19,211 nt of DNA from a virus. Its lineage: Duplodnaviria; Heunggongvirae; Uroviricota; Caudoviricetes. Where the stretch lies: IMG/VR virus record IMGVR_UViG_2687453529_000007, one strand, 5' to 3'. The notes beneath the pieces are model-generated. The model made no database searches and was not told the origin of the DNA. It saw nothing but the letters and a program-made list of their open reading frames with translations. A program made the translations under genes and the position numbers. Below, piece by piece: positions 2,690 through 17,954 of the stretch (positions within the stretch are counted from its first letter, which is position 1; each line of letters starts with the position of its first letter).

Positions 2690-3037
2690 TTACGAATTAC
2701 TGCGGCGCTGTTGCTTTTCCGCATGTACGCGTTTCACAATCTTATAAATCCATTGCAGCGTCAGATTATATTTCTTCGCTAATTCGGCGTAGTTGCGCCC
2801 ATCGCACTCGCTATAGATTTGGTAGTCACGCTCCGATGCTCGTCCGGAGATCCCCTTAGGGAAATAGATGCTTTGTCCGCCCCAGTTACGCATCATTCGG
2901 TCGGCAATGGCAAAACCCACATTTTCTGCCGATGAACTGTCGAGATTGATGCTTTCAATCAGAACTTGCGATGCATGAAAAGCCAGGTCGTTAATGATCT
3001 CCGGTGTCCGGGCCATCTCTTTTGATTTTCGTATCAT
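2690..3037 (-). CDS. Mor/C-family (phage Mu middle/late operon regulator-like) transcriptional activator, 115 aa
   Basis: C-terminal region DGRNYAELAKKYNLTLQWIYKIVKR aligns with the Mu Mor helix-turn-helix region NGRNVSELTTRYGVTFNTVYKAIRR; GGAG RBS 7 nt upstream of the ATG; divergent from the lysis/tail genes. Confidence 0.75.
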   Translation of the reverse strand: MIRKSKEMARTPEIINDLAFHASQVLIESINLDSSSAENVGFAIADRMMRNWGGQSIYFPKGISGRASERDYQIYSECDGRNYAELAKKYNLTLQWIYKIVKRVHAEKQQRRSNS

Positions 3038-3258
3038 TTTTCATCTCCATATATCTTGCATCCTGAATAAGACCCGATGCGTGTAAAACCACGGATATAC
3101 GCTAAGCAGTTGTCATTACTGCTACTCAATACATTCAATAAACAAATAAACAATCACCAAAAATATAAACTTTTAATATTAATGAACGTCATAAATTCAC
3201 GAAATAAATATATTGTTTGGATTATGTTTCTTATCAACAGGAGTATCATTTTACACTA

Positions 3259-3278
3259 TACTGTATACATATACAGTA
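3259..3278. promoter_or_regulatory. LexA (SOS) operator, near-consensus
   Basis: TACTGTATACATATACAGTA versus consensus TACTGTATATATATACAGTA (CTGT-N8-ACAG core intact, one mismatch). Lies in the AT-rich divergent region between the Mor-like gene and the lysis genes, flanked by -10/-35-like hexamers on both strands. Confidence 0.75.
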
Positions 3279-3574
3279 TTATTTTTACCTGTAGAGTAAA
3301 AAGATCGTTTCCCTCACAGTCGCTGACTTTCTTAAACAAACTTTAAAAATCAAATAACTATCGACTATTCCTACGATCCACCATCATCTTTCCCCTGCAT
3401 AATGACGCGCTTATTAGCCTGGTCACCTTTTGCTCTTTAATTGCTGAGTCGATTTATTAGCGGGCTTGTTCATTTATAGAGAATCTATTTTTTAAACTTA
3501 TTTATTAAAGCTTTTTTCATTCTTCACTGGCGGGTTCTGACGACACTAAACGCTCACTTATCAGGAGATATCGT

Positions 3575-3862
3575 ATGAAAAAAGTCACTTTTCCCCGGCT
3601 TTCCGGCTGGCTAGTCGCTTCCGCCGCGCTGTTTGTCGTGATCGGCTGGACCTCTTCCGCACAGATCCCGGTCGTCATTTATAAACTAAGCCTGGTTTCG
3701 CTTTCCGCGGTGCTGGGATACTGGCTCGATCGCAGTTTGTTCCCCTGGGCACGGCCTGACTCTTTTAGCCCCTGGAAGGAACCTCGTTGCTGCGCGGCGG
3801 CAATGATTCGCCGCGCCATCATCGTTGCCGCCGTCTGTCTTTCCGTCGCCTTAGGGCTATAG
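3575..3862 (+). CDS. Small multi-pass membrane protein, putative holin (95 aa)
   Basis: AGGAG RBS 7 nt upstream; three hydrophobic segments; stop overlaps the start region of the downstream lytic transglycosylase (TAGTGATG). Function inferred from position. Confidence 0.45.
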   Translation: MKKVTFPRLSGWLVASAALFVVIGWTSSAQIPVVIYKLSLVSLSAVLGYWLDRSLFPWARPDSFSPWKEPRCCAAAMIRRAIIVAAVCLSVALGL

Positions 3863-3864
3863 TG

Positions 3865-4470
3865 ATGTGGCTGAAATATATCGCGTCTATGATTATTTTC
3901 GTTCTTTTCCCGCTTAACGCCTCTGAACCGCCGCGAGCCTCTCTGGCATGGCGAAACGAACTAATTCGTACAGCTCGAGAAGTCTGGGGGCTGAATGCTC
4001 CAGTGGCCGACTTTGCCGGGCAATTACACCAGGAGTCCGCCTGGCAGCCAATGGTACGTTCCCCCGTTGGCGCACAAGGTATGGCGCAATTTATGCCTGC
4101 TACAGCGACATGGATAAGCCAGTTGTATCCACAATTGCGTGAAAACAAACCGTATAACCCAACCTGGGCGATTCGCGCGCTGGTGCAATATGACCAGCAT
4201 TTGTGGAAAAACATCTCTGCGAAAAATGATTGTCAGCGTATGGCGTTTACCCTAAGCGCCTATAACGGCGGTCAGGGGTGGGTTAACCGGGATAAAAAAC
4301 TGGCTGCATCCAAAGGGTTAGATGCCACTAGCTGGTTTGGTCATGTTGAGCAAGTCAACGCCGGGCGCAGCGCCACGAACTGGCGAGAAAATCGTCGCTA
4401 TCCAAAGATGATCCTCTATCAACATGCCGCCCGCTATTTACTCTGGGGACAGGCAAGCTGTCTTCATTAA
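3865..4470 (+). CDS. Phage lytic transglycosylase (SLT domain) endolysin with N-terminal signal/SAR-like hydrophobic segment
   Basis: N-terminal MWLKYIASMIIFVLFPLNA hydrophobic stretch, then SLT motifs (LHQESAWQP with catalytic Glu, GMAQFMPATA, AYNGG). The track ORF 3787-4470 begins earlier with a non-ATG codon; ATG at 3865 sits directly after the holin stop. Confidence 0.8.
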   Translation: MWLKYIASMIIFVLFPLNASEPPRASLAWRNELIRTAREVWGLNAPVADFAGQLHQESAWQPMVRSPVGAQGMAQFMPATATWISQLYPQLRENKPYNPTWAIRALVQYDQHLWKNISAKNDCQRMAFTLSAYNGGQGWVNRDKKLAASKGLDATSWFGHVEQVNAGRSATNWRENRRYPKMILYQHAARYLLWGQASCLH

Positions 4471-4482
4471 TCAGAGGGGCCG

Positions 4483-4797
4483 ATGAAACTCAGTATCGAT
4501 TTTTGGGAAGTGATCTCCCTTATGCTTTCCTTCGTTGGATTAATGTTTGCTGCCGGAAAACTGCTGTTAGCACAAATTGAAAAACGACTTAATGAGCGTT
4601 TTGAGTCTCTGGAAAATGCCCGCAGGGAATCAGAAACAAGTTGGTCGAAACTGGAAAGAGAATTTCTCGAATTTCGTGCCGAGCTTCCGCTGCATTATGT
4701 CCGCAGAGAAGATTATCTTCGTGGGCAAGCAGTATTAGAAGCGAAGCTGGATGCCTTATATAGCAAAATCGAGCTGTTACAACGTGGCAGTTATTGA
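4483..4797 (+). CDS. Lysis accessory protein, Rz/i-spanin-like (N-terminal TM helix + coiled coil), 104 aa
   Basis: N-terminal TM segment EVISLMLSFVGLMFAAGKLLLA followed by charged coiled-coil-like sequence; position after the endolysin. No convincing embedded lipoprotein (o-spanin) ORF found by eye. Confidence 0.4.
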   Translation: MKLSIDFWEVISLMLSFVGLMFAAGKLLLAQIEKRLNERFESLENARRESETSWSKLEREFLEFRAELPLHYVRREDYLRGQAVLEAKLDALYSKIELLQRGSY

Positions 4798-4802
4798 AAA
4801 AT

Positions 4803-4834
4803 CCCCACCCTTATGTAAGGGTGGGGATTTTTTT
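4803..4834 (+). terminator. Rho-independent terminator closing the lysis cassette
   Basis: CCCCACCC-TTATGTAA-GGGTGGGG stem-loop followed by ATTTTTTT; an A-run upstream makes it potentially bidirectional. Confidence 0.85.
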
Positions 4835-4941
4835 AACCATTCAATTTTTTCTCTAAATCACATTAAAAGATTCTTCACCTTCGCTGCTTCAGAATACATT
4901 TCAACGATAACGAAGTGAGCGGTAATTAAGGTACAGCCTAT

Positions 4942-5397
4942 ATGGAAATTTTATCTGTAATGAATTCTGTTGTGACCAGATTACGTGAACACAACTCCGA
5001 AATGGATATATTTATTTCATCTAAGGATGCCCAGAAATATATTCCACAGACACAACGAGTTGCAGTGATTATTAATTATAGCGGTTCTGTCTTTGCTACG
5101 CCCGAAAGCAGTAATGCCATCGTGCAACAGCAAATACTCCGCTTAACCGCCACCGTTATTGTTGGCAAAAATTGTGATGCATTAAACGCACTTGATCACA
5201 TACGCAGCGCATTGGGTGGCCTTCCGCTTCCTGATTGTGATCGTCTGCTTTGGCTTGAAAAAGAAATTAATACGGGTGAGAGCGGCGGTTTCTGCCGCTA
5301 CATCCTGGAAATGGCGACCAGCTCGCTGTTTATCGCTGAACAGGAAAGCACGGATCTTCCCCTGCTTACGGAAGTTAACTACGAGGAAACTGAATGA
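4942..5397 (+). CDS. Putative tail completion / sheath-terminator-like protein (151 aa)
   Basis: First gene after the terminator, immediately upstream of a small ORF and the sheath gene, coupled to the next ORF. Family assignment is by position only. Confidence 0.35.
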   Translation: MEILSVMNSVVTRLREHNSEMDIFISSKDAQKYIPQTQRVAVIINYSGSVFATPESSNAIVQQQILRLTATVIVGKNCDALNALDHIRSALGGLPLPDCDRLLWLEKEINTGESGGFCRYILEMATSSLFIAEQESTDLPLLTEVNYEETE

Positions 5398-5591
5398 AAT
5401 ACATCTACAACGGCCCAGCAAGCGGCGTCACCCTTGCCGATGGACAAGAAATCTTATTGTGGCCGAACAGTGAAATTGATCTGCCAGAAGACAACGAGTG
5501 GGTCATGACCATGATTGCCCGCAATCATCTGACTCCTGTCATCACTCAGGAAGAACAAAATAACGTAGAGGAAATTGTACATGGCAGCTAA
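5394..5591 (+). CDS. Small conserved phage tail-module protein (65 aa) preceding the sheath gene
   Basis: GAGGAA RBS; ATG overlaps the upstream stop (ATGA); 3' end overlaps the sheath start by 11 nt. Function unknown. Confidence 0.4.
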   Translation: MKYIYNGPASGVTLADGQEILLWPNSEIDLPEDNEWVMTMIARNHLTPVITQEEQNNVEEIVHGS

Positions 5592-7005
5592 TTATCTGCA
5601 CGGTGTAGAAACTATTGAAATTGAAACCGGCCCGCGTCCGGTTAAAGCGGTAAAATCCGCCGTCATCGCTTTAATCGGTACATCCCCCTGCGGTCCGGTA
5701 AATAAACCAACATTATGCCTTTCTGAAAGCGATGCTGCGCAGTTTGGCTCGACTCAGGCTAACTTTACGATCCCACAGGCACTGAAGGCAATTTATGACC
5801 ACGGTGCCGGTACGGTGGTGGTGATTAACGTGCTGGATCCGGCAAAACATGGCTCCAACATCAGCAATGAGAGTATCACTTTTGATGCTAACAACCAGGC
5901 GAAGCTCGCTCACCGCAATGTGCGTAACGTGGTACTAAAGCCCTCTTCATCAAATTCATCAACCTTTAACACCGCAGCATTTAGCGTAGATGAACAAACA
6001 GGCATAATTACCCGTAAAGGAGCCGACATTCCTCCTGGTGCGAAAGTTTGTGCCTATTATTCCTGGTGCGACCCTACAAAGGTCACCGCAGCCGATATTA
6101 TCGGTACCGTAAATACCGCAGGCGACCGCACGGGGATGAAACTCCTTCAGGACACCTATAACCTGTACGGTTTCTACGCCAAAATCCTGCTTGCTCCTGT
6201 GTTTTGTACGCAAAAATCGGTGACTACTGAGCTGATTGCACAAGCGGAAAAACTCGGTGCGATTACCTACATTGATGCCCCGATTGGGACAACATTCCAG
6301 CAGGTATTGGCTGGACGCGGTTCGCAAGGGGCTATCAACTTCAATACCAGCTCTGATCGTGCGCGTTTATGTTACCCACATGTCAAAGTTTACGATGGCA
6401 TCACTAACCAGGAAATTCTTGAGCCTCTCTCTTCGCGTGCTGCCGGGCTGCGTGCCAAAGTAGACCTCGAAAAAGGTTTCTGGTGGAGCAACTCAAACCA
6501 GGAAATTCAGGGTATTACCGGTATTGAACGTTCGCTTTCCGCAATGATTGATGATCCACAAAGCGAAGTGAATCAGCTCAACGAAAACGGCATTACCACT
6601 ATTTTCAATAGTTACGGCTCTGGTCTGCGCTTGTGGGGTAACCGCACAGCGGCATGGCCTACCGTGACCCATATGCGTAACTTTGAAAACGTCCGCCGGA
6701 CAGGCGATGTAATCAATGAGTCAATCCGTTATTTCAGTCAGCAGTATATTGATATGCCGATTAATCAGGCACTTATTGACGCGCTGACCGAATCGGTAAA
6801 TACCTGGGGCCGAAAACTGATTGCCGACGGCGCACTGCTTGGCTTTGAGTGCTGGTACGATCCGGCACGAAATTCACCGGCTGAACTCAGCGCCGGGCAT
6901 TTATTGCTGAGCTATAAATTCACCCCGCCACCGCCGCTGGAACGTCTGACGTTTGAAACTGAAATTACTTCTGAATATTTAGTCTCTCTGGAGAGCAATA
7001 GCTAA
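5581..7005 (+). CDS. Contractile tail sheath protein (P2 gpFI-like)
   Basis: N-terminus MAANYLHGVETIEIETG resembles P2 FI (YHHGVQVLEINEG) and the C-terminus LLSYKFTPPPPLERLTFETEITSEYL resembles P2 FI ([26 protein letters not shown]). GAGG RBS 9 nt upstream of ATG 5581; the track ORF begins at TTG 5575. Confidence 0.9.
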   Translation: MAANYLHGVETIEIETGPRPVKAVKSAVIALIGTSPCGPVNKPTLCLSESDAAQFGSTQANFTIPQALKAIYDHGAGTVVVINVLDPAKHGSNISNESITFDANNQAKLAHRNVRNVVLKPSSSNSSTFNTAAFSVDEQTGIITRKGADIPPGAKVCAYYSWCDPTKVTAADIIGTVNTAGDRTGMKLLQDTYNLYGFYAKILLAPVFCTQKSVTTELIAQAEKLGAITYIDAPIGTTFQQVLAGRGSQGAINFNTSSDRARLCYPHVKVYDGITNQEILEPLSSRAAGLRAKVDLEKGFWWSNSNQEIQGITGIERSLSAMIDDPQSEVNQLNENGITTIFNSYGSGLRLWGNRTAAWPTVTHMRNFENVRRTGDVINESIRYFSQQYIDMPINQALIDALTESVNTWGRKLIADGALLGFECWYDPARNSPAELSAGHLLLSYKFTPPPPLERLTFETEITSEYLVSLESNS

Positions 7006-7529
7006 TGGCTGGAAAAATTCAAATTAACCGTATTACCAACGCCAATATTTATCTCGATGGTAATAACCTTTTAGGTCGTGCAACAGAAATTAAATTGCCG
7101 GATGTAAGTTTAATTATGCAGGAGCATAAAGCACTGGGCATGGTGGGTAAAATCGAACTCCCGGCAGGTTTCGATAAACTGGAGGGCGAAATTAAATGGA
7201 ACTCCTTCTATCAGGACGTAATGCGTAAAACGGCAAACCCGTGGCAGGCGGTTGCATTACAGTGCCGCTCCAGTATTGATTGCTATAACTCCCAGGGGAA
7301 AGCGAATCAATTAGCGCTAGTGACACATTTAACCGTGATGTTTAAAAAGAATCCACTGGGCACATTTAAACAGAATGAAAACCCGGAATTCAGCAGCGCC
7401 TTTGGTTGCACTTATATTAAACAAGTAGTTGATGGTGAAACGCTGCTTGAACTTGATTATATGGCCAATATTTTCCGGGTTAATGGTGTGGATCAATTAA
7501 GTACCTATCGCAATAACATCGGTGGCTAA
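7005..7529 (+). CDS. Tail tube protein (P2 gpFII-like)
   Basis: Start overlaps the sheath stop; C-terminus NGVDQLSTYRNNIGG matches the P2 FII end NGVDRLEQHRRNIGL. Confidence 0.85.
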   Translation: MAGKIQINRITNANIYLDGNNLLGRATEIKLPDVSLIMQEHKALGMVGKIELPAGFDKLEGEIKWNSFYQDVMRKTANPWQAVALQCRSSIDCYNSQGKANQLALVTHLTVMFKKNPLGTFKQNENPEFSSAFGCTYIKQVVDGETLLELDYMANIFRVNGVDQLSTYRNNIGG

Positions 7530-7579
7530 GTTATTCGGGGCTACGGCCCCGAACTTTGCAAAATAAATAAGGACACAAA

Positions 7580-7897
7580 ATGAAAGAACATTATATCTTG
7601 CAGTTTCCATTTACGTCGGCAGCAGGAAATAATATCGACACGCTGCAATTACGTCGCCTGAAAGTAAAAGATATGCGCAACGCCCGCCGGATCAGCGAAA
7701 AGCCAGAAGAGTGGGATGAACCGCTGATGGCGGCGATGACCGGACTGGTGCCAGAAGATTTAGCCGAAATGGATTTGCTGGATTACCAGGCATTGCAGAA
7801 ACGATTTCAATCCATGCTTACCGTGGTTACAGAATCCTCCCCTGCTATGGCAGGCAATGGCGCTACTGGCGAGATGGTTTCGCTTTCCGCCCAGTGA
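7580..7897 (+). CDS. Tail assembly chaperone (gpE/gpG-like), short product
   Basis: Small acidic protein between tube and tape measure genes, the position of frameshifting tail chaperones. Confidence 0.6.
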   Translation: MKEHYILQFPFTSAAGNNIDTLQLRRLKVKDMRNARRISEKPEEWDEPLMAAMTGLVPEDLAEMDLLDYQALQKRFQSMLTVVTESSPAMAGNGATGEMVSLSAQ

Positions 7898-7985
7898 GAT
7901 AGACGCCCTTACCGTCGATGACTTTAGCAACTGGCTGGATGAAGCCAGCGCCCAAATAAAAATCGAATATGACTCGCAGACCTGA
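7580..7985 (+). CDS. Frameshift-extended chaperone isoform (E+E'-like), requiring a +1 shift
   Basis: A +1-frame ORF is open from 7764 to the TGA at 7983-7985 and would append ...PPSEIDALTVDDFSNWLDEASAQIKIEYDSQT. The only candidate shift motif seen is CTT_TCC at 7883-7888. Site and mechanism are not proven. Confidence 0.4.
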
Positions 7986-8086
7986 TGTCTGCGAGTTTCC
8001 CAAGCCCGTCAGGTTTATTTCTTCCCTGCCCCTTTTTTTAGAAAAATAACCAGCGGGCCATTATCAATATTTAAAGAGAAACAATT

Positions 8087-8887
8087 TTGGCCAACGATAT
8101 TATTACCCAGCTTCAGGCGCGTAATGAGACGTTGACGCAGGCAATAGCCCGTTACGGCTCACTCAACGCCAGAACATTGTTAACTCTCTCTACTCAGCAG
8201 GCGACAGTTATCAAACTAACGCAGCAGCTTGCCGATTCCGCTCTCCGCCTGGAGGAAAATAGCCGCAGCCGCGCTAATCTGATGGAGAAAACCCAAACAT
8301 TTGCCGGGCAATTTAGCAAAGTATTCAATGTTGAAGCCCCCGACTGGAAGTTGCCGTATGAGTTTCAGGACAACATGGTCAATATGGCGACCAAAGGTGG
8401 GATGAATGCTACAACCCGCGAGACGCTCAGCCTTAATCTGCGCGACTGGAGCATGGATTTTAACCAGCAGCAGACCACCTTACAGAACGCAGCCCAAACG
8501 CTGATCGAAGGCAATTTGTCGTCGATGCAGGATCTCAACCGTTATATGCCGGAGATCGCCAAAGCTGCCACCGCCACGCGCGAAAGTGCTGAAACGTGGG
8601 CGAATGCCGCGCTCGCGACTCATGATCGACTGAATATTGCCCCGGAAAATTTCCACGCCGCGCAAAACATGATGTACGGCATTAGCAAAAGCGGTGGGCC
8701 TGCCATTGCTGAACAAACGCAGTGGATAGAGAAATTTGCAGGTAAAACCGGCGCTCAGGGTCTGGAAGGTATGGCTGAACTGACTGCCGCCATGCAGATC
8801 GCAATGAAAAATGGGGCCAGCGCCAGTGCGGCGGCGGAGAATTTTGAACCACTTTCTGCAAACCACCTTTTCGAAAAAAACCGATAG
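8087..8887 (+). CDS. Tail tape measure protein, N-terminal segment (frame A); TTG start
   Basis: Helical N-terminal region typical of tape measure proteins; ends at TAG 8885-8887 while a second frame continues. In-frame stop at 8072-8074 restricts the start to the TTG at 8087 (RBS AAGAG upstream). Confidence 0.6.
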   Translation: MANDIITQLQARNETLTQAIARYGSLNARTLLTLSTQQATVIKLTQQLADSALRLEENSRSRANLMEKTQTFAGQFSKVFNVEAPDWKLPYEFQDNMVNMATKGGMNATTRETLSLNLRDWSMDFNQQQTTLQNAAQTLIEGNLSSMQDLNRYMPEIAKAATATRESAETWANAALATHDRLNIAPENFHAAQNMMYGISKSGGPAIAEQTQWIEKFAGKTGAQGLEGMAELTAAMQIAMKNGASASAAAENFEPLSANHLFEKNR

Positions 8888-10463
8888 CTGGTTCGCCAGC
8901 CAGGGCGTCGATCTGCAAGGCTCTCTGCTTGAACATCAGCAAAACGGTATGGGTGTTAGCGAAGCCATGACTCATATCGTACAAATGCAGCTTGAGAAGA
9001 TGAACCCGGCGATCCTCGACACCTTCAAACGTACTATGCAGATTGAAGATTTATCTGCTCGCAGCAATGCGCTGCAATCGATGGTGTCGCAATTTAATCT
9101 GGGCGAAATGTTCGGCGATGTGCAAACGGTGGAATTCCTGGCACCTATGCTGGCGAATATGGAGGAATATCGCCAGTTAAAAGCCTCTGCCATGCAAGCC
9201 ACCAGCAAGAATCTGATTAACGCTGACTTTTCTGCGCAAATGGCCTCGCCCATTGAACAGACTAAAGCGTTACAGCTGGCATTAAATGATTTATGGCTCA
9301 GCATTGGTTTGCAGCTTATGCCGGCGATTGGCGAGCTGGCACAAAGCCTTACGACGGTTATTCGCCAGTTCAGCGCCTGGCTACGCGAACATCCGGCGCT
9401 GGTGCAAAACATTGCGAAAATCGTCGGGGCGGTTTGGCTGTTTAACGGCGCGCTGAATGTTTTAAAGCTGGGCGCGAACCTCATCACCTCGCCGTTTATT
9501 CGTCTGGTCGATATCTTCCTGAAAGTCAAGGCAAGTCTGGCGCTCACAGGCGGGGCAAGTAAGATGCTATCAGCGGTTAAGTCATTGGGTGGCGGCGCAA
9601 AATGGCTAATGCAACTGCTTGGTCGTGGCCTGATTGGCGCACTGAAACAGGTAGGTCAGACCGTCTTCTGGTTGGGTAGGGTTTTATTGATGAATCCCAT
9701 TGGTCTGGTCATCACTGCGATTGCGGGCGCTGCTTATCTGATTTGTCGCAACTGGGAGCCTATCTCCAGGTTCTTTTCGACCATCTGGCAACGTATCACC
9801 ACGGCCTTTGACGGCGGCATTGCAGGAATTTGTCGGTTGATTCTCGACTGGTCACCGCTGGAGTTGTTCTATAGCGCCTTTTCCAGTGTGATGAATTGGT
9901 TTGGTGTCGAGATGCCTGCAAGTTTTAGCGAGTTCGGCAGCAATCTTCTGGGCAGTCTGGTTGACGGCATAATGAATGCCTTCCCCGCTCTGAAAGGCAT
10001 TATTGATCAGGTAAAAAACGCCATCCCAGACTGGCTAAAAACCACGATGGGTATTAGTACAGAAGGATCGGCTACAGCTATTACAAGCACGACTAATACC
10101 GCATCCGTCTCCCCCGCGACCGTTGTTCCAGGCGTTGCCGGTGCGATTTTAACACCGCCGGTGGGCAAACAACTCGCGCCATCCGGCAAAACGGCTACGC
10201 CGTCATCGGCGCCAGCGGCAAAAAATACAGCCGCCAAACCCGTATCTGCCTCTTTACCTGGTAAATCCGTAACCAAACCGGCGACGCTACCCTCCCGTTC
10301 CTCAGGAAAAGTCCAGGTAAATTTTTCGCCACAAATTACCGTGCAGGGTAACGGACAAAACACCACTAAAGAGATTCAGAACGTGTTGACGATGAGTAAA
10401 CGCGAACTGGAAAGAATGATTAACGATGTAATGGCGCAGCAGCAGCGCCGGGGGTATGCCTGA
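8811..10463 (+). CDS. Tail tape measure protein, main/C-terminal segment (frame B, +1 relative to frame A)
   Basis: Frame B opens after the TGA at 8805-8807 and encodes typical tape-measure content (LQTTFSKKTDSWFASQGVDLQ motif region, long hydrophobic/Gly-Ala-rich middle, Ser/Thr/Pro-rich tail). Segments together total about 790 aa. Confidence 0.65.
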   Translation: MGPAPVRRRRILNHFLQTTFSKKTDSWFASQGVDLQGSLLEHQQNGMGVSEAMTHIVQMQLEKMNPAILDTFKRTMQIEDLSARSNALQSMVSQFNLGEMFGDVQTVEFLAPMLANMEEYRQLKASAMQATSKNLINADFSAQMASPIEQTKALQLALNDLWLSIGLQLMPAIGELAQSLTTVIRQFSAWLREHPALVQNIAKIVGAVWLFNGALNVLKLGANLITSPFIRLVDIFLKVKASLALTGGASKMLSAVKSLGGGAKWLMQLLGRGLIGALKQVGQTVFWLGRVLLMNPIGLVITAIAGAAYLICRNWEPISRFFSTIWQRITTAFDGGIAGICRLILDWSPLELFYSAFSSVMNWFGVEMPASFSEFGSNLLGSLVDGIMNAFPALKGIIDQVKNAIPDWLKTTMGISTEGSATAITSTTNTASVSPATVVPGVAGAILTPPVGKQLAPSGKTATPSSAPAAKNTAAKPVSASLPGKSVTKPATLPSRSSGKVQVNFSPQITVQGNGQNTTKEIQNVLTMSKRELERMINDVMAQQQRRGYA

Positions 10464-11416
10464 TGTATGCCGTTTTAGGAGAGATTGAATTTAAGGTTGT
10501 CACATTCTGGGACGGCTTTAAAAGCACAATGGGCGTGGATTACGCCACACATGCCCGTATAGAAGGCAAACCCGGCGTGCAGTTTATTGGCGATAAGCTG
10601 GATATGCTGGCGCTGGAATTTTCCCTGCACAGCCAGTTTTGCCAGCCCACAACAGAGCTGAACCGACTGCGTGAAGCCATGCTTGCTCACAAGGCGATGG
10701 CACTGGTATTTGGCAATGGCGATTATCGCGGCTGGTTTGTGATTACGGAGCTAACCGCCACCCACCAGCACACCGATCCCTGGGGCAATGTGATTGCCCA
10801 AAACGGAACGATGTCGCTCCAGGAGTACACCGGCGATCCTAAAAATCCACTTTTACCTCCGGCGATTACCACCCAGGAGCCCAACATCGAGGAAAAGGCG
10901 AGCGATTTTCCCGACAAGGTGGAGTCCTGGTTTGATCAGATATTAAACGCCATCGAAGAAGGTATGCGTAAGGCCAAAGAGATGCTGGATGAACTGACAC
11001 AAGCCATTGAAGATATTAAAAAAACGGTGGCAAAAGTGAAAGCAATGATTAAAGAGGCCAAAGCGTTAAAAGAAAAGTGTGAAAAGATAATTACGTCATT
11101 GAAAAAGACAATCGACGCCATCGAAACCCTGTTTAAACAGCCAATGGATCTGCAAACGCTGGCAGGACTCCCAAAAGCGTTGTCGGCGCAGATTAAAACT
11201 TTACTGGGTAACATGCCAGGTATCCGGGACTGCGCCAATGACGCCAGTACACTGGTTGACCATGCTCAGGCGCTTTTCGACGACATTACCAGCGACATCG
11301 CCGAAGCGACGTTTGATAAAGCCGCAACGTTGGTTGATCAGGCACGAACAACGGTACAACAAACCACTCCCACAGTGAGCCAGCTTGCTGCCGCGACCAT
11401 TACGAGGATCTGGTGA
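10463..11416 (+). CDS. gpU-like tail protein with long C-terminal coiled-coil extension (317 aa)
   Basis: Sits between tape measure and gpX/gpD as P2 gpU does; ATG overlaps the tape measure stop (TGATG). C-terminal ~190 aa are E/K/A-rich predicted coiled coil. Assigned by synteny and weak N-terminal resemblance. Confidence 0.5.
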   Translation: MYAVLGEIEFKVVTFWDGFKSTMGVDYATHARIEGKPGVQFIGDKLDMLALEFSLHSQFCQPTTELNRLREAMLAHKAMALVFGNGDYRGWFVITELTATHQHTDPWGNVIAQNGTMSLQEYTGDPKNPLLPPAITTQEPNIEEKASDFPDKVESWFDQILNAIEEGMRKAKEMLDELTQAIEDIKKTVAKVKAMIKEAKALKEKCEKIITSLKKTIDAIETLFKQPMDLQTLAGLPKALSAQIKTLLGNMPGIRDCANDASTLVDHAQALFDDITSDIAEATFDKAATLVDQARTTVQQTTPTVSQLAAATITRIW

Positions 11417-11625
11417 TGCGATACCTTGAACATATCACCACCGACGGCGAACGCTGGGATAATCTGGCATGGCATTACTACGGTGATGCGCTGGCTTATG
11501 AACGCATAATCGCCGCCAATCCACATGTAGCCATTTACCCGGTACTGCCTTCCGGTATTCAGCTCATTATTCCGGTCATTTCCGTCAATAAAACCTTATC
11601 GGAGATCCCACCATGGCTGAGATAA
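11416..11625 (+). CDS. gpX-like small tail protein (LysM-like fold)
   Basis: Pattern L-x-x-I-x-x-x-x-ERWD-x-L-A-W-x-YYGD...AANP...LPSG matches the P2 gpX family; ATG 11416 overlaps the upstream TGA (track start 11413 is a GTG). Confidence 0.6.
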   Translation: MRYLEHITTDGERWDNLAWHYYGDALAYERIIAANPHVAIYPVLPSGIQLIIPVISVNKTLSEIPPWLR

Positions 11626-12653
11626 GCGTAACTGGTGGCGTCTTTGCCACACTCACGCCCATTTTTACCCTCTGGTATGGGCATAAAGATATCACTTATG
11701 ACATCACACCCTATGTCACCAGCATCAGTTACCACGACAGCATCAAAAACGAGTCGGATACCATCGCAATTACACTGGATGACACAGATGGACGCTGGAT
11801 AAAAGAGTGGTATCCCGGCAAAGGCGATACGCTGGCGCTGCATATGGGTTATCAGGGAGAGAAGCTGCTCGATTGTGGTCAGTATATTATTGATAAAATT
11901 GATATTTCAGCGCCACCTTCTACGGTAAATATTGATGGCATCGCCACTTCCGTCAATCAGGCGCTGCGCACCCGTAACAGCCAGGGTTTTGAAGAAACGA
12001 CGCTTTCGGCTATCGCCAGCCGTATCGCACAAACTCACGGCCTAAAGCTGGTGGGCAAAATCGAGCCTCTGACAATTGACCGGGTGACACAGTACGGCGA
12101 AACCGATGTTGGATTTCTCAAACGTCTGGCCAGTGAATATGGTTATGCCGTAAAAGTGACGACGAAAGAGCTGATTTTTTCACATTTACCCACGCTGCGC
12201 TGCCTGGCACCTGTGAAAAAGATCGACCGCAAAGACGTTTCGCATTTCACCTTCAAAGATACCATTAACCGTATCTACAAAAACGCCACCGTACAGCATC
12301 AAAATAGTAAGAAAAAAGAACTGGTTATCTACACTCACAACAGCCAGCAAAAACCGTCTGCCCGTGGAGTCGGCACCAGTGCCGACACGCTAAAACTGAA
12401 CAGTCGGGCGACGGACGTTGGCGCAGCACAGGCAAAAGCCAACGCTGCACTCGACAGCCACAACGAATATCAGCAAACCGGAACGCTCACAATGATGGGC
12501 TGCCCGGAACTGACGGCGGGCAATAAAATCGAGCTAACCGATTTTGGCGTGCTTTCCGGTCAATGGCTAATTGATAAATCGACTCACAGTTTTGTGCGCA
12601 GCGGCTATACCACTGAAATCGACGTGTCGCGCGGGCCAGCGACCAGCCAGTAA
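11613..12653 (+). CDS. gpD-like tail protein (late control D family; baseplate hub)
   Basis: Collinear similarity to P2 gpD: TLSAIASRIAQ / DVGFLKRLASEYG / C-terminal DFGVLSGQWLIDKSTHSFVRSGYTTEIDV. GGAG RBS. Confidence 0.8.
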   Translation: MAEISVTGGVFATLTPIFTLWYGHKDITYDITPYVTSISYHDSIKNESDTIAITLDDTDGRWIKEWYPGKGDTLALHMGYQGEKLLDCGQYIIDKIDISAPPSTVNIDGIATSVNQALRTRNSQGFEETTLSAIASRIAQTHGLKLVGKIEPLTIDRVTQYGETDVGFLKRLASEYGYAVKVTTKELIFSHLPTLRCLAPVKKIDRKDVSHFTFKDTINRIYKNATVQHQNSKKKELVIYTHNSQQKPSARGVGTSADTLKLNSRATDVGAAQAKANAALDSHNEYQQTGTLTMMGCPELTAGNKIELTDFGVLSGQWLIDKSTHSFVRSGYTTEIDVSRGPATSQ

Positions 12654-12662
12654 GGAGGAAAT

Positions 12663-13364
12663 ATGAAAGGAGTAACCCGTCAAACGGGGATTATCAGCGA
12701 TATTGACGAAACCAGCGTTCGGGTGCGGGTCACGCTCCCGGAGTGTGACAATCTGAAGAGCAACTGGCTTGCGGTACTTCAACGCAATTCCCAGGACAAT
12801 AAAGACTACTGGCTACCGGATATGGGCGAGCAAGTGGAAGTTCTGCTGGACAATAACGGTGAAGATGGCGTGGTGCTGGGCGCAGTTTATTCTACGGTTG
12901 ACACCGCGCCTGTAGCCTCGCGCGACAAACGTTACGTCCAGTTTTCTGATGGCGCAGCGTTTGAATATGACCGCAGCACGCACCAGCTGACGATCAACGG
13001 CGGTATCGAGAAAATCGTGATTGAGGTTATCAACGGTACCTGCCTGACATCGCCCAACGTTGAGATTAAAGCCCAACAGGTCACCGTGACTTCCGATACC
13101 GTCGATGTTAAAGCGACCGATGTCAGCATCGACGCCACTAAGGTCGAGGTTAAAGCAGCAGCAGTGACGGTAGATGCGCCCATGAGCACCTTTACTGGCA
13201 ACGTCACGGTAATGAAAAAACTCACCTGGCTTGGCGGGATGGCAGGAAGTGGAGGCATCGGTAACGCAGCCACGATAACCGGCAATGTCAACGTGATCGG
13301 CAACGTTCAGGCCAGCGGCGCATTGCAGGACAGCGGTGGCAACTCCAACCACCATTCACACTGA
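12663..13364 (+). CDS. gpV-like baseplate spike protein
   Basis: Strong RBS TAAGGAGG; MGEQVEVLLDNNGEDGVVLGAVYS and VQFSDGAAFEYDRSTHQLTINGG match P2 gpV motifs; C-terminal His-rich tip NHHSH. Confidence 0.85.
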   Translation: MKGVTRQTGIISDIDETSVRVRVTLPECDNLKSNWLAVLQRNSQDNKDYWLPDMGEQVEVLLDNNGEDGVVLGAVYSTVDTAPVASRDKRYVQFSDGAAFEYDRSTHQLTINGGIEKIVIEVINGTCLTSPNVEIKAQQVTVTSDTVDVKATDVSIDATKVEVKAAAVTVDAPMSTFTGNVTVMKKLTWLGGMAGSGGIGNAATITGNVNVIGNVQASGALQDSGGNSNHHSH

Positions 13365-13369
13365 CGTTT

Positions 13370-13399
13370 AACCCGCCTGATGGCGGGTTTTCTCTTTTT
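13370..13399 (+). terminator. Intrinsic terminator inside the tail gene cluster (between gpV-like and gpW-like genes)
   Basis: AACCCGCC-TGAT-GGCGGGTT stem-loop followed by TTCTCTTTTT. Confidence 0.7.
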
Positions 13400-13462
13400 A
13401 ATCAATCAGTTTTCTAAATCGCTTTAATATCTCCACAGCCCGTTCAGGGCGAAAATACCCTC

Positions 13463-13822
13463 ATGAACACAAAAACACGCCCCTCAACGCTGCACTGGCA
13501 ACCGGCCTTGCTGCGGCCTGAAGAATACGTCTGCGGACTGGATGATATTCACCAGGCAATACACATCATTCTGCGTACACCGCGCGGCAGTGATCCCCAC
13601 AGACCGCTGTTTGGCAGCAACTTGTGGCACTACATCGATTACCCCATCGAGCGGGCTATCCCGCATGTGGTACGGGAGTCGGTGGAAGCCATCCGCCAGT
13701 GGGAACCGCGCTGTCGGTTGCTGAAGGTGACACCAGTAATCGACGGCGAACATCTGACGTTACGTGTGCAATGGCGCGCCGCTGACGGCGTTATCAACTC
13801 AACGGAGGTGTTATGGCGATAG
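13463..13822 (+). CDS. gpW-like baseplate protein (GPW/gp25 family)
   Basis: ILRTPRGSDPHRPLFGSNLWHYIDYP and WEPR match P2 gpW (ILRTPVGSRVMRRDYGSLL...IDQP, KWEPR). Confidence 0.85.
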   Translation: MNTKTRPSTLHWQPALLRPEEYVCGLDDIHQAIHIILRTPRGSDPHRPLFGSNLWHYIDYPIERAIPHVVRESVEAIRQWEPRCRLLKVTPVIDGEHLTLRVQWRAADGVINSTEVLWR

Positions 13823-14928
13823 CCGAACCCAATTTTATTGACCGCGATCCTGCGCAAATTACCAGTGAGATGATTGCGCAATACGAAGATGCCAGTGGTA
13901 AAAAACTCTATCCGGCACAGGCTGAGCGGTTGCTCATCGACCTGTTTGCCTATCGTGAAAACCTTGTACGCATCGCCATTCAGGAAGCGGCGAAACAAAA
14001 CCTGGTCGCGTATTCCCGCGCGCCAATGCTGGATTATTTAGGAGAGCTGGTGGGCGTTCACCGTTTGCCTGCGCAGCCAGCAAAAACGACGTTGCAGTTT
14101 TCGGTCGTCAGTGCGTATACCAGCAATATCCTGATTCCCCAGGGGACGCGGGCCAGTGCCTCTGATAGCGTGATGTTCGCCACCGATGAAGATGTTCTGC
14201 TTCCGGCCTGGAGTTTGCATATCGCCGTTCCTGCCACCAGCCTCGCAGCAGGTGAACAGGGTAACGGCTGGCAGCCTGCACAAATTAGCGCTCTGGTCGA
14301 CAGGATTGGTCATTATGACATCAACGTAACCAACCTGACTGCGTCAACGGGCGGCTGCGGTGAAGAGAGCGATGACGCATTGCGCCAGCGTATCCAACTG
14401 GCACCAGAAAGCTTTAGTAATGCGGGCAGCTATGGCGCATACCGCTTTCATACGCTTTCTGTTAGCCAGTCGATTATTGACGTTGCAGTACTGGGGCCGG
14501 ACGAGGGATTGCCAGAAGGCTGCGTGGAGATCTACCCGCTAACCCTGAATGGACTGCCAGGAATAGAACTGCTCGCGCAAATCGAACAGGAGGTTAGCAA
14601 GGAGAAAAAACGTCCGCTGACCGACAAAGTGAGTGCGAAATGCGCTCTTCGAGTGCCGTATGAGATCCGTGCGCAGCTAACGCTGTTTACCACCGCCGAT
14701 CAGGAGACAACGCTGGCTGCGGCGCGTAAAGCGATTAGCCTCTGGACGCAACAGCGGCAGAAACATCTGGGGCAAGACATTGTGCCAAACCAGATAATCA
14801 AAGTGTTACAGGTCGATGGCGTCTATGACGTTGCGCTGAACTTGCCTACAAAACGTATTTTGCAGGCGCATGAATGGGCGGAATGCACTGCAATAGACGT
14901 CACGATCGCCGGAGTTAGCGATGGATAA
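13813..14928 (+). CDS. gpJ-like baseplate wedge protein
   Basis: Size, position after gpW and overlapping start (GGAGG RBS) fit the P2 gpJ / Mu gp47 family. Confidence 0.8.
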   Translation: MAIAEPNFIDRDPAQITSEMIAQYEDASGKKLYPAQAERLLIDLFAYRENLVRIAIQEAAKQNLVAYSRAPMLDYLGELVGVHRLPAQPAKTTLQFSVVSAYTSNILIPQGTRASASDSVMFATDEDVLLPAWSLHIAVPATSLAAGEQGNGWQPAQISALVDRIGHYDINVTNLTASTGGCGEESDDALRQRIQLAPESFSNAGSYGAYRFHTLSVSQSIIDVAVLGPDEGLPEGCVEIYPLTLNGLPGIELLAQIEQEVSKEKKRPLTDKVSAKCALRVPYEIRAQLTLFTTADQETTLAAARKAISLWTQQRQKHLGQDIVPNQIIKVLQVDGVYDVALNLPTKRILQAHEWAECTAIDVTIAGVSDG

Positions 14929-15637
14929 ATTGCTACCACCGCCGCCGCTTGCCAGCGATGAGCGTTTTTCGATTCTGGCAAATATCGCCGCCGAGCGTTT
15001 TGCCCAACTCGATCTGACGGCGTTGATGGTTTATCTGGTCGACCTGGTTGATGCTTCGGCATTACCAGCCCTTGCAGAACAATTTCACGTTCAGGGGTTG
15101 GAAGGTTGGTTATTTACCACCGATGAGCGGGAGAAACGCGAGTTAATTAAACAAGCCATTGAACTGCATAAATATAAAGGAACAATTTGGGCGGTGCGGC
15201 GGGTGCTGGAAATACTCTCCTTACCCGGAACTATTTCAGAATGGTTTGAATATGGGGGAAGGGCTTACTTTTTTAAGGTTGATATTACACTAGAGAAAAA
15301 AGGATTAAATGAAGATGAATTCAATGCACTTATCACATTAATTCATGAATATAAAAATGTCCGTTCAAAGCTGGAAAGCATTGTTATTTGGCTTATTAAT
15401 CGAAGCCCAATACCAGTTATTGGCAGTGCCATGCAAGGAGGGGAAGTCATTACAGTATTGCCTCCTGTTGCAGAAAGCCTCAGCCAGTCATCTGGAATAT
15501 TTTTAGCGACAGGTTATTGTGTGGAGGAATATATTCAACTACTACCTTATCAACCCGATCGACTAACACAATCCCAACCGATGAAGGTCGGCACAGGATA
15601 CTGGAGCACCGAAATTATGTCTGTATATCCGGAGTAA
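14921..15637 (+). CDS. gpI-like baseplate/tail protein
   Basis: [15 protein letters not shown] matches P2 gpI HCHKGTIGAIRRVVE; overlaps the gpJ-like stop. Confidence 0.8.
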
Positions 15638-15639
15638 TA

Positions 15640-17250
15640 ATGGCAAGTGAATTTTTTACAATATTAACTGCTGCAGGCAAAGCCAAAATTGCCTCAGCAC
15701 TGGCCGAGCAAAAACAGATCCGTCTGCAAACTATGGTAGTTGGCGACGGTAATGGTAAATATATCGAACCGACAGAAAGTCAGACCAAAGTAGTCCATGA
15801 GGTCTGGCGTGGTCAGCTCAATACATTAAAAATTGCGCCAGATAATCCGGCCTGGGTTATCGCAGAAGCGATTATTCCCGAACAAGTCGGAGGCTGGTAT
15901 GTACGCGAAGTTGGGTTACTGGATACCGACGGCACGATGGTCGCTATTGGTAAATTCCCGGAAACCTATAAGCCACGATTACCTGCGGGGGCCAGTAAGC
16001 AAATCGTTATACGCGCGGTCATGGAAGTCACCAATGCAGATGCGGTGACGCTTTTGATCGACCCTTCAGTCGTTGTGGCAACCAGGGAATATGTCGATGA
16101 CGCGTTGAAAACACATCAGCAATCACGAAATCATCCTGATGCGACGCTGACACAAAAAGGTTTTACGCAGCTGAGTAATGCGACTAATAGCGATGATGAA
16201 ACCAAAGCGGCCACGCCAAAAGCGGTAAAAACGGCATATGACCTGGCAAATAGCAAAGCTGCCACCAGTCATAATCATGCCTGGAATCAGATTACTGGTA
16301 TCCCTGATGGTACACTGACGCAGAAAGGAGTCGTTAAGCTTAACAATACAACAAATAGCACCAGTACGACGGAAGCTGCAACACCAAGTGCGGTTAAGGC
16401 AGCGATGGATAAGGCTATTGCTGCGGCACCGTCCAGCCATACCCATGCCTGGGGGCAAATAACAGGTATCCCCGACGGTACGCTGACGCAAAAAGGGGTC
16501 GTGAAACTTAATAATGCGACCAACAGCACCAGTACGACGGAAGCTGCAACGCCGAACGCTGTTAAGGCAGCGATGGATAAGGCTATTGCTGCGGAAAGCT
16601 GTCCTGTTGGGATGCCTATTCCCTGGCCATCTGATTCTGTACCTTCAGGCTACGCTCTGATGACAGGTCAGACATTTAATAAAACCTCCTATCCCAAACT
16701 GGCAATTGCATATCCATCTGGTGTTATTCCTGATATGCGCGGATGGATAATTAAAGGAAAACCATCCAGTGGGCGCGCTATATTATCTACTGAACTGGAT
16801 GGAGTTAAATCACATAACCATACGGGCAGTATTTCGAGTACGGACTTAGGGACGAAATCTGTATCATCAATAGATCTAGGAACAAAGAACACTCAGTCAT
16901 TTAATCATGGGATAAAAACAACAAATACAGCAGGCGCGCATAGCCATGATAGTGGTTCTGGCGAAAGTAGTGAGGGGGGAAAACCTCGGTATGGTACTCG
17001 TGATAACACAACAAATAATTTTGGTTCTGGTGAATCAGATCATGACAATTACAAATTTAACACATCCACGGATGGAGAGCATGCACATTCAGTTAATGTT
17101 GGCTCACACTCTCACTCTGTTATTTTAGGGTCACATAATCATTCAATTGCCCTTGGTTCCCATAATCACTCCCTAACCATTAATAATACCGGCAACACCG
17201 AAAACACCGTCAAAAATATCGCATTCAACTATATTGTGAGGCTAGCATGA
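15640..17250 (+). CDS. Tail fiber protein (P2 gpH-like N-terminus, repeat-containing shaft, His-rich C-terminal receptor-binding region), 536 aa
   Basis: N-terminus [18 protein letters not shown]...HEVWRGQLN...[20 protein letters not shown]...[14 protein letters not shown] is collinear with P2 gpH. GGAG RBS 5 nt upstream of ATG 15640; the track ORF 15517 begins upstream inside the gpI-like gene. Confidence 0.85.
16267..16602 (+). repeat. Tandem 168-bp (56-codon) direct repeat, two copies, within the tail fiber gene
   Basis: Two near-identical units encoding SH(N/T)[47 protein letters not shown], with a degenerate third copy upstream; matches the phage tail fiber repeat class. Confidence 0.8.
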
Positions 17251-17954
17251 ATACTTTTACCTTTTCCGATGAAGCTCAAATACTAACTGTATATAATTTT
17301 TCACAAGACTCCCAAGAATATATCGGTGAGTCTGATGCATACATTGCACCTAATACAGGCTTGCCAAATTATTGCACATTAATTTCACCTCCCGAAAAGG
17401 TTCCTGGTTTTACTCCAGTGTGGGAGAATGAAACATGGAGACTTATTGAAGATCATCGAGGCCAAACTGTTTATAACAAAGTTGATGGTAGCCAGCTTAT
17501 TATTCAAGAATTGGGCCAATTACCTGAAAATGTAACAGTCATTTCCCCGACAGGTTCTTTTGAACGTTGGGATGGTGAAAAATGGCAACCATCTATAACC
17601 GATGCTAAAGAGGCGAAATACTCTGCAATCAAAAATCAACGCGATGCCATCACAACCGATTACATCATCATCAACAACCATCACTTCCACAGTGATACAA
17701 ATAGCCGTATCCAACAGCTTTCACTCACAAAAATGGGAGCGGAGAAAAAAATTCCGCCAGGTTTAATGTGGAAAACTAAAAATAATGGTCTGATTGAGTT
17801 AACCAACGAAATCGCTGCCCAGTTTGAATCGGTCACCATGGATCACGATATGCGCTTGTTCGCAAACGCCCAGCGTCATATCGCGGCGGTGGAAGCACTG
17901 GACGATATTCAGGCGGTGCTCGACTACGATTATTCAACAGGCTGGCAACCATGA
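17247..17954 (+). CDS. Tail fiber assembly chaperone (Tfa / gpG family)
   Basis: N-terminal half [44 protein letters not shown]...[34 protein letters not shown] closely parallels lambda Tfa; ATGA overlap with the fiber gene stop. Confidence 0.85.

Follow-up and report, generated by a model that had tools for sequence, protein, structure and literature searches.

A double-length gpU as a probable tube initiator with a helical bundle in a head-less contractile tail cluster of Escherichia coli

Gene organization of the locus

The window analysed here, that is the whole stretch of 19,211 nucleotides of the viral record IMGVR_UViG_2687453529_000007, harbors a long form of the tail gene gpU at 10463..11416 on the plus strand. 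According to the list of open reading frames and its translation, this gene starts with an ATG and codes for 317 amino acids plus a stop codon; the RefSeq entry for the identical gene is WP_022646413.1, named simply 'phage tail protein'. It adjoins the tape measure gene on its upstream side (8087..10463, plus strand, PF10145). Downstream on the same strand lie gpX (11416..11625; PF05489, Phage_tail_X, E = 1.7e-23) and then the baseplate hub gene gpD (11613..12653; PF05954, Phage_GPD, E = 1.9e-11), in agreement with the position between tape measure and gpX/gpD assigned in the preliminary description. The stop codon of the tape measure gene and the start codon of gpU share one base in the sequence TGATG at 10461-10465, and the same one-base overlap links the gpU stop to the gpX start at 11414-11418, so that the long gpU gene is translationally coupled to both neighbors. 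The wedge genes gpW (13463-13822), gpJ (13813-14928) and gpI (14921-15637) are also on the plus strand, and a Pfam search of these genes returned PF04965, PF04865 and PF09684.

Of 5426 complete E. coli genomes, 194 contain the region with an identity of at least 90%, so that the long gpU gene is real and no chance open reading frame. Head genes are absent from the cluster. In the window, the tape measure gene is split over two frames by one additional A near position 8847; it is a single coding sequence of 2376 nt in CFSAN061771, an E. coli strain whose cluster is intact, and none of the 194 complete E. coli genomes with the cluster shows the extra A. The s1-ST131 region of the ST131 'tailocin' paper was considered as the same cluster, an identity that we could not establish (PMC9205054).

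Family membership and length

The long gpU is indeed about twice as long as a canonical gpU (P2 gpU has 159 amino acids), and this extra length had initially been read as a possible fusion with a second domain of the tail tip. The protein does have two domains, the second of which is most plausibly a baseplate domain, but as a whole it is a standard member of a known longer family: residues 1-316 match positions 1-296 of the 297 positions of phrog_788 ('tail protein') end to end, with an E-value of 7.6e-131. Full-length homologues of 288-327 amino acids are present across the Enterobacterales, in many genera, as well as in Burkholderia phage phiE255, with the same gene order. Among the best 150 GpU representatives, 71 have 275-330 amino acids and 50 have 150-215. 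With about half of the nearest representatives being long, double length is ordinary, and the additional sequence is a normal trait of the whole family and no new fusion. The double-length gpU is an ordinary member of a widespread class of long tube initiators.

Homologues are called 'chemotaxis protein' or 'methyl-accepting chemotaxis protein' in some sources, and databases contain open reading frames limited to the C-terminal part (phrog_18424; P0389-P0395). These observations could suggest that the long frame is an artefact, with two genes joined by a frameshift or by an annotation error, or that it codes for a chemotaxis-type protein, readings to which we give almost no credence. The unbroken frame of 288-327 amino acids is kept in many genera and in isolated phages, and the frameshifts that can be seen lie in short forms, not in long ones. 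Moreover, the similarity to methyl-accepting chemotaxis proteins (MCPs) stays under the Pfam thresholds and is limited to helical low-complexity sequence, and the corresponding database names were rejected as compositional. The few 'short' close relatives (182-250 amino acids) are frameshifted or truncated gene calls; we rejected the idea that they represent a short ancestral form, their tails being either the long form out of frame or deletions into gpD.

Domain architecture of the long gpU

Residues 1-127 (10463..10843, plus strand) constitute a GpU tube-like domain, as assigned from PF06995 and from the profile alignment with P2 gpU. PF06995 (Phage_P2_GpU) is found at residues 6-123 with 116.7 bits for a cut-off of 27.5 (E = 6e-34), and the alignment spans positions 1-119 of the 120 of the profile. 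In addition, when the broad family profile A4 is compared with P2 gpU by hhalign, residues 4-122 align to residues 4-123 of the P2 protein (probability 96%, E = 3.8e-9), which points to a homologous tube domain. This domain is 63-84% identical among orthologues, and its pLDDT is low when modelled as a monomer. P2 gpU is a tube initiator of which six copies sit upon the gpD trimer (preprint 10.64898/2026.09.14.750843), and by homology the GpU domain of the long form is predicted to form a hexameric ring between the gpD hub and the tail tube.

The tube domain is followed by a proline-rich linker, residues 128-150 (10844..10912, plus strand), which opens with a conserved NPLxPPA in which P129, L130, P132, P133 and A134 are invariant or almost so. 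Five of the 27 residues from 128 to 154 are prolines, and pLDDT falls under 50 across residues 124-153 in the AF2 model.

The helical bundle delimited from the AF2 models, residues 151-299 (10913..11359, plus strand), is the most variable part of the long gpU, with only 13-62% identity among orthologues, and it tolerates in-frame indels (a loss of 28 and a gain of 22 amino acids). Residues ~151-316 are confidently predicted as a bundle with five main helices (pLDDT 80-96 in the full-length model; mean pLDDT 83 and pTM 0.77 when modelled alone), consisting of long helices at 151-188, 192-225, 238-273 and 277-299, a short turn at 230-234 and a terminal helix at 302-316. The long gpU thus unites in one polypeptide a tube domain and a helical bundle longer than 100 residues. 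The extension had been described from the sequence as an E/K/A-rich helical, coiled-coil region. Its helical nature stands, but its composition is only moderately biased (E, K and A make up 31% of residues 128-317, where A, T, K, L and I are most frequent), and the models show an up-and-down bundle instead of a single long coiled coil.

No Pfam family matches the bundle above cut-off, and a search with the C-terminal 168 amino acids retrieved only the protein's own family and its fragments, with no different architecture. Against the PDB, Foldseek with the helical domain alone gave generic bundles, mostly de novo designs, and the helical domains of Mu, Milano and pyocin are absent from its top 50 matches; for this reason we dropped the proposal that they are structurally the same domain. 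As the helical domain by itself has no specific structural match, its role is read by analogy.

The helical part also shows weak PHROG matches to tape measure families (E from 1e-3 to 1e-2). Taken together with the adjacent, translationally coupled tape measure gene, these matches could favor the early suggestion of a capping domain, with the extension capping, or otherwise binding, the tape measure within the tail tip. However, they are compositional, since designed coiled coils, SMC proteins and MCPs are matched by the same region as well. The structure of the Mu baseplate shows a channel sealed jointly by the hub, the spike and the tape measure, with the helical domain of the initiator outside the tube, by the wedges (PMC11915804). 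Furthermore, the P2 authors saw no supported similarity between Ripcord and the tape measure (preprint 10.64898/2026.09.14.750843). We consider such a capping function very improbable and retain nothing in favor of a domain of this kind.

The terminal helix, residues 302-316 (11366..11410, plus strand), carries the conserved tip SQLAAATITR with S306, A310 and R315. All of 52 sequences share S306 and R315, and nearly all share A310, in C-terminal halves that are otherwise about 16% identical. A hydrophobic-x-x-R pattern in the last 10 residues is present in 65% of the long representatives versus 5% of control windows. The P2 protein, which has no helical bundle, has about 30 residues after its tube domain versus about 190 in the long gpU, and its C-terminal end reads ...SMATRF.... 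In P2, the C-terminal helix of gpU, which bears a Thr-Arg motif, contacts the wedge triplex, and the modelled contact helix ends at T150 of the ATR motif (preprint 10.64898/2026.09.14.750843). The extension looks like an insertion ahead of a conserved C-terminal Thr/Val-Arg tip, a detail that is new. A conserved tube domain, a variable bundle and an invariant tip fit a fixed anchor combined with a fast-evolving interface.

Comparison with related and solved tube initiators

Phage phiE255 has the closest known gene context, with the genes in an identical order from Gp37 and the sheath to the fibre. Its gp19 (296 amino acids) aligns over 99% of the query with 34% identity, and its PF06995 match spans residues 6-123. 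The same full-length architecture is shared by phiE255 gp19, BcepMu gp45 and the homologues in Enterobacterales prophages (phrog_788), although the helical half has diverged strongly and drops to 13-22% identity beyond the closest genera. These phages have heads and Mu-like replication genes, both of which the E. coli cluster lacks. We found no solved structure or tested function for proteins of the phiE255 gp19/BcepMu gp45 type.

Solved tube initiators with a helical domain are the Ripcord PA0626 of pyocin R2, Mu gp43 and gp25 of the Agrobacterium phage Milano, in which this domain is placed between the hub and the wedges (PMC10811340, PMC11915804). According to PMC10811340, the helical bundles of Milano gp25 and PA0626 are a 'glue' that joins the wedges and is extruded on contraction, the pyocin domain departing with the tube. 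Mu gp43 combines a tube-like domain with a helix-rich domain that embeds the helix bundles of the wedges (PMC11915804).

PA0626 (PDB 6u5b) also harbors PF06995 (E = 2.4e-32), has nearly the same length (290 amino acids) and is encoded at the equivalent position of a head-less tail cluster with the same order of tape measure, gpU, gpX and gpD. Residues 16-125 of the long gpU align by hhalign to its residues 168-286. The domain order is however reversed in PA0626, with helices at the N-terminus (~1-120) and the GpU domain at 158-285. This detail is new, and differs from PMC10811340, where one sentence has the pyocin bundle following the tube domain on its C-terminal side. The two helical domains show no significant similarity to each other (domain E-value 30), and they may be independent acquisitions or the result of a permutation. 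Among the profiles, only the broad A4 retrieved PA0626 (whole-sequence E = 3.7e-4). No relative was found among the sequences of solved structures in the PDB with the single sequence or with a narrow N-terminal profile, and the results of profiles extending into the helical half were dominated by designed coiled coils, viral fusion proteins and MCPs.

The top PDB match of the full-length model by Foldseek is the phage Mu baseplate chain 9ki1_0 (probability 0.98, 328 aligned columns), followed by the baseplate of phage 7-7-1 and then by the pyocin R2 baseplate chain 6u5b_g, all with low TM-scores (~0.2) and large rmsd; Mu gp43 (protein N, PDB 9ki1), Milano gp25 and the 7-7-1 centrepiece are the best structural matches. 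In these centrepieces the tube domain is N-terminal and the helical domain follows, as here. They are longer (400-500 amino acids), with eight helices in the helical domain and a LysM fused to it; the long gpU has five main helices, and gpX is encoded separately. Their tube domain belongs to PF07157 and that of the long gpU to PF06995, with no significant sequence similarity: PF07157 is absent from the long gpU at E-values up to 0.01, whereas Mu gp43 matches it at 5.8e-26, and hhalign against the single sequence of Mu gp43 gave nothing significant (probability <1%).

The LysM is the C-terminal domain of the centrepiece in Milano and Mu (PMC10811340, PMC11915804), and gpX is a small 'glue' protein, LysM-type in the literature. 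gpX, encoded directly after gpU in our cluster, is the collinear counterpart of the LysM module at the C-terminus of Mu gp43, of Milano gp25 and of the 7-7-1 centrepiece. The database also contains rare fusions of 364 amino acids (P0079, P0083, P0101) that carry both PF06995 and PF05489. In P2, the gpX gene lies elsewhere in the genome (preprint 10.64898/2026.09.14.750843).

The resemblance to Mu raises another reading, compatible with a structural role, in which the helical domain acts after ejection like Mu N (gp43), entering the target cell with the tube tip. It might there hold and protect the injected DNA ends in the transposable BcepMu-like phages from which the cluster descends, or have the inner membrane as its target. 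For Mu gp43, two functions have been reported, tube initiation and DNA circularisation (PMC11915804). Besides the Mu chain, the top viral structural match of the full-length model is a 407-amino-acid 'DNA circulation, N-terminal' protein, the long gpU is shared by the Mu-like phages phiE255 and BcepMu, and weak matches to the helical pore-forming toxins NheC, XaxA and Hbl-B were obtained. We regard this reading as unlikely. The toxin matches are far under any threshold and typical for helical proteins, neither PF07157 nor a significant hhalign match to Mu gp43 is present, and the LysM is not fused at the C-terminus but supplied by the separate downstream gpX. Pyocin R2 carries no DNA, and Milano is not reported to be transposable; as both have such helical domains, a structural role suffices. 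The cluster studied here, without head genes, has no DNA to protect.

Proposed role of the long gpU

We propose that the long gpU is probably the tube initiator, or baseplate centrepiece, of a contractile tail of the BcepMu/phiE255 type, whose bundle would lock the wedges and be released with the tube. This reading is based on the PF06995 domain, the tape measure-gpU-gpX-gpD order common to pyocin R2 and phiE255, the phrog_788 membership, the predicted bundle and the solved analogues. Against it, PA0626, the sole solved protein with PF06995 and a helical bundle, has the opposite domain order, and the results with the helical domain alone, the low TM-scores of the full model and the modelling as monomers also weigh on this side.

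By homology to the solved proteins, six N-terminal GpU domains would form a ring on the trimeric gpD hub and start the tail tube. Through the proline-rich linker, the bundle would extend outward and downward into the gap that separates the hub from the six gpW-gpJ2-gpI wedges. It would there cooperate with the separate gpX to keep the wedges locked in the extended state that precedes firing, the last conserved helix with its Thr-Arg tip serving as the putative anchor onto the wedge. On a signal from the fibres, the wedges would splay and free the lock, and the long gpU would depart from the baseplate with the moving tube, as later papers describe for the pyocin Ripcord. By analogy to the Mu, Milano and pyocin structures, the helical domain presumably binds the wedge proteins gpW, gpJ and gpI, and it most likely helps to keep the baseplate together.

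Possible origin of the helical bundle and significance

A more speculative idea, which we hold to be quite unlikely, is that a wedge-locking bundle was gained more than once, or permuted, among GpU initiators, and that the BcepMu-like bundle may possibly have the role of Mu N as well. The bundle is N-terminal in Ripcord, and in the long gpU it would be an insertion that separates the tube domain from an ancient Thr-Arg anchor at the C-terminus. In BcepMu-like phages, this inserted bundle would enter the cell with the tube tip and hold the DNA ends, and the head-less cluster of E. coli and Salmonella would retain it for its baseplate role alone.

The tube initiator assignment gives a likely role to a protein whose annotation stops at 'phage tail protein' or is, in some cases, the erroneous 'chemotaxis protein', although its importance on its own is small, and a double-length gpU is no reason for flagging the gene as odd. 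For contractile tails and tailocin engineering, it indicates that a helical 'lock' domain can either precede or follow the GpU ring domain. As this domain tolerates large changes in sequence and in-frame changes in length while its last helix is fixed, it also suggests which parts may be altered and which may not.

Family-wide length of the gpU-position protein

The gene located between the tape measure and gpX/gpD genes (10463..11416, + strand) has an ATG start and encodes a protein of 317 aa; an identical gene is present in E. coli CFSAN061771 (RefSeq WP_022646413.1, “phage tail protein”). It is overlapped at both ends by a TGATG motif, sharing one base of its start with the tape measure stop (10461-10465) and one base of its stop with the start of the next gene (11414-11418). 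On its 5' side lie the sheath and tube genes, with those for an E-type tail assembly chaperone and the tape measure; on its 3' side, Phage_tail_X and Phage_GPD come first, then gpV, gpW, gpJ and gpI, and finally the fibre and fibre assembly genes. As P2 gpU is 159 aa long, the “double length” reported in the preliminary description is accurate, and the observation as a whole is confirmed.

This length was previously read as a possible unusual fusion, whereas profile searches identify the protein as a standard member of a longer family. PHROG family 788 (“tail protein”) covers it end to end (E 7.6e-131), and in a search of ~5.8 billion proteins, homologues spanning the full length (288-327 aa) were retrieved from Salmonella, Enterobacter, Klebsiella, Yersinia, Pectobacterium, Erwinia, Serratia, Xenorhabdus, Photorhabdus and other genera. 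Among phage genomes, tblastn showed this long protein to be present in phage phiE255 of Burkholderia (gp19, 296 aa, 99% coverage), which shares the gene order of the window cluster from Gp37 through the fibre, and in related phages. When the N-terminal 137 aa were used in an exhaustive HMMER search, 984 representative proteins were obtained at E <= 0.001; the best 150 of these have a bimodal length distribution, 50 being 150-215 aa long and 71 being 275-330 aa long. The extra length is thus a feature of the whole family: the earlier reading of two domains, the second most probably a baseplate element, stands, but not their treatment as unusual. Close relatives of 182-250 aa are few, and these are artefacts rather than genuine short forms, their tails being either the long form read out-of-frame or the result of a deletion into gpD. 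The possibility that the long ORF is itself an artefactual fusion, or a chemotaxis protein, is ruled out by an intact frame conserved across genera and in isolated phages.

Domain organization and conservation

Residues 6-123 match the Pfam family Phage_P2_GpU (E 6e-34, 116.7 bits for a cut-off of 27.5 bits), while the C-terminal half matches no Pfam family at cut-off; PF07157 is not matched by the protein either. The two halves are joined by a proline-rich linker (~128-150) of low model confidence. The C-terminal extension is 31% E+K+A in composition, and AlphaFold2 models, all of monomers, predict helices at 151-188, 192-225, 238-273, 277-299 and 302-316 with a short turn at 230-234, at a pLDDT of 80-96 in the full-length model and with a mean pLDDT of 83 (pTM 0.77) when this domain is modelled alone. 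The extension is therefore predicted to be a folded helical bundle rather than a single long coiled coil.

Conservation along the family is very uneven. Identity among orthologues is 63-84% in the tube domain and 13-62% in the bundle, which shows an in-frame loss of 28 aa and a gain of 22 aa. The last helix has two invariant residues, S306 and R315, in 52 sequences, and 65% of the long representatives have a hydrophobic-x-x-Arg motif within their last ten residues, compared with 5% of control windows. Moreover, most proteins of both forms end in Thr/Val-Arg, the Arg lying 1-3 residues from the terminus. Most short-form gpU proteins (150-215 aa; database representatives P0136-P0266) have a tail of 40-80 residues beyond the tube domain, usually of low complexity and in many cases Pro/Ala/Lys-rich, with a common end motif such as ...IVRQ, the same Val/Thr-Arg tip as in the long forms. 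P2 gpU harbors the same ATR, exactly where its modelled triplex-contact helix stands. This uneven conservation and the shared tip suggest that the bundle was inserted after the tube domain, ahead of an old C-terminal anchor.

Comparison with tube initiators

Over the tube domain, P2 gpU can be aligned with the family profile (probability 96%, E 3.8e-9). In the P2 virion, gpU is the tube initiator, the gpD hub trimer carries six copies of it, and its C-terminal helix, modelled up to T150, touches the wedge triplex (preprint 10.64898/2026.09.14.750843). [quoted passage not shown] The order tube, then helical is that of the window protein, but LysM is fused in Mu gp43 and Milano gp25, whereas in the window it is encoded by gpX, a gene of its own that is translationally coupled to the gpU gene. 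Since the two reading frames overlap in TGATG, a single-base change could be enough to fuse gpU and gpX. Candidate fusions of 364 aa carrying PF06995 and PF05489, which reproduce the Tube-Helical-LysM order, were identified (database proteins P0079, P0083 and P0101); they are rare, and sequencing errors are possible.

The best PDB match of the full-length model is a Mu baseplate chain (9ki1_0, probability 0.98, 328 aligned columns), followed by the baseplates of phage 7-7-1 and pyocin R2, and among predicted viral structures a 407-aa protein named “DNA circulation, N-terminal” ranks first. The window protein has no significant alignment with Mu gp43, and a structure search with the helical domain alone retrieves nothing but generic bundles among its top 50 matches, most of them designed de novo, and none of the solved centrepiece helical domains.

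The pyocin R2 protein Ripcord PA0626, translated from the P. aeruginosa record (L004, 5284-6156), where it is mislabelled “XRE family transcriptional regulator”, has a tube domain, length, gene position and helical bundle in common with the window protein. However, in this 290-aa protein the helical part comes first and the GpU domain follows at residues 158-285 (E 2.4e-32), so the two proteins have opposite domain orders. The PDB sequence “Ripcord PA0626” and a profile-profile comparison give the same alignment pattern, in disagreement with one sentence in PMC10811340. The sequence similarity between the helical half and the PA0626 helices is not significant. The pyocin bundle reportedly acts as a wedge-joining “glue” and is extruded along with the tube during contraction (PMC10811340).

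Given these generic matches and the lack of significant similarity to Mu gp43 and PA0626, it is by position, architecture and analogy that the bundle is proposed as a putative wedge lock. A tape-measure-capping domain, as suggested in the preliminary description, is not supported: the matches of the helical part to tape measures are weak and compositional, and in Mu the channel is sealed by hub, spike and tape measure while the helical domain of the initiator abuts the wedges on the outside. The parent phages of the cluster are Mu-like, and the domain may have had a post-ejection role in them, like Mu N; such a role is not needed, since pyocin R2 has such a domain though DNA-free, and the window cluster has no head genes.

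The head-less tail cluster and its locus

The window corresponds to the lysC locus of the E. coli chromosome, and the tail cluster (2690-18406; 14691-30406 in the reference, L001) is flanked by lysC and yjbD/rluF. It comprises genes for a Mor activator, a holin, an SLT transglycosylase, a membrane protein, a Gp37-family protein and a 65-aa ORF, then a complete set of contractile tail and baseplate genes. Genes for a head (capsid), packaging (terminase), an integrase, a transposase or replication are missing, and the arrangement is that of a putative R-type tailocin originating from a BcepMu-like phage. No paper describing the lysC-yjbD/rluF cluster as an R-type tailocin was found in the literature, and a link with the “s1-ST131” region of PMC9205054 was looked for and not established. 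Two direct repeats of 162 nt lie next to each other in the tail fibre gene (16265-16594, ~84% identical) and correspond to Phage_fiber_2 repeats at the protein level. A 151-aa ORF without family match (17951-18406) lies 3' of the fibre assembly gene, followed on the opposite strand by an RlaP-family nucleotidyltransferase gene (18420-19211, E 4e-96), after which a slipin-family gene is present in the reference genome.

In the window, one extra A near 8847 (TTTTGAACC vs TTTTGACC) splits the tape measure gene (8087-10463) into two frames (ORFs 8087-8887 and 8811-10463); it is absent in 194/194 complete E. coli genomes carrying the cluster and must be a sequencing error or else a strain-specific mutation that inactivates the gene. 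In addition, the left end (~1-1511) is made up of IS903B (transposase ORF 1-924, 307 aa) and a TonB-dependent receptor gene fragment, where CFSAN061771 has pgi, the lysine riboswitch and an intact lysC. This segment replaces the lysC 5' end, joining the gene at its ~nucleotide 224, so that lysC appears 5'-truncated in the window source.

The cluster is carried by 194 of 5426 complete E. coli genomes, and the same head-less cluster occurs at the same pgi-lysC position in two Salmonella enterica contigs (L006 and L007), with a long gpU 72% identical to the window protein; in L006, gpV and gpW are separated by the insertion of a gtr-like operon of three genes (GtrA, a family 2 glycosyltransferase and a GT_STM0557 protein). 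This conservation of the locus across genera suggests a long-term retention of the cluster.
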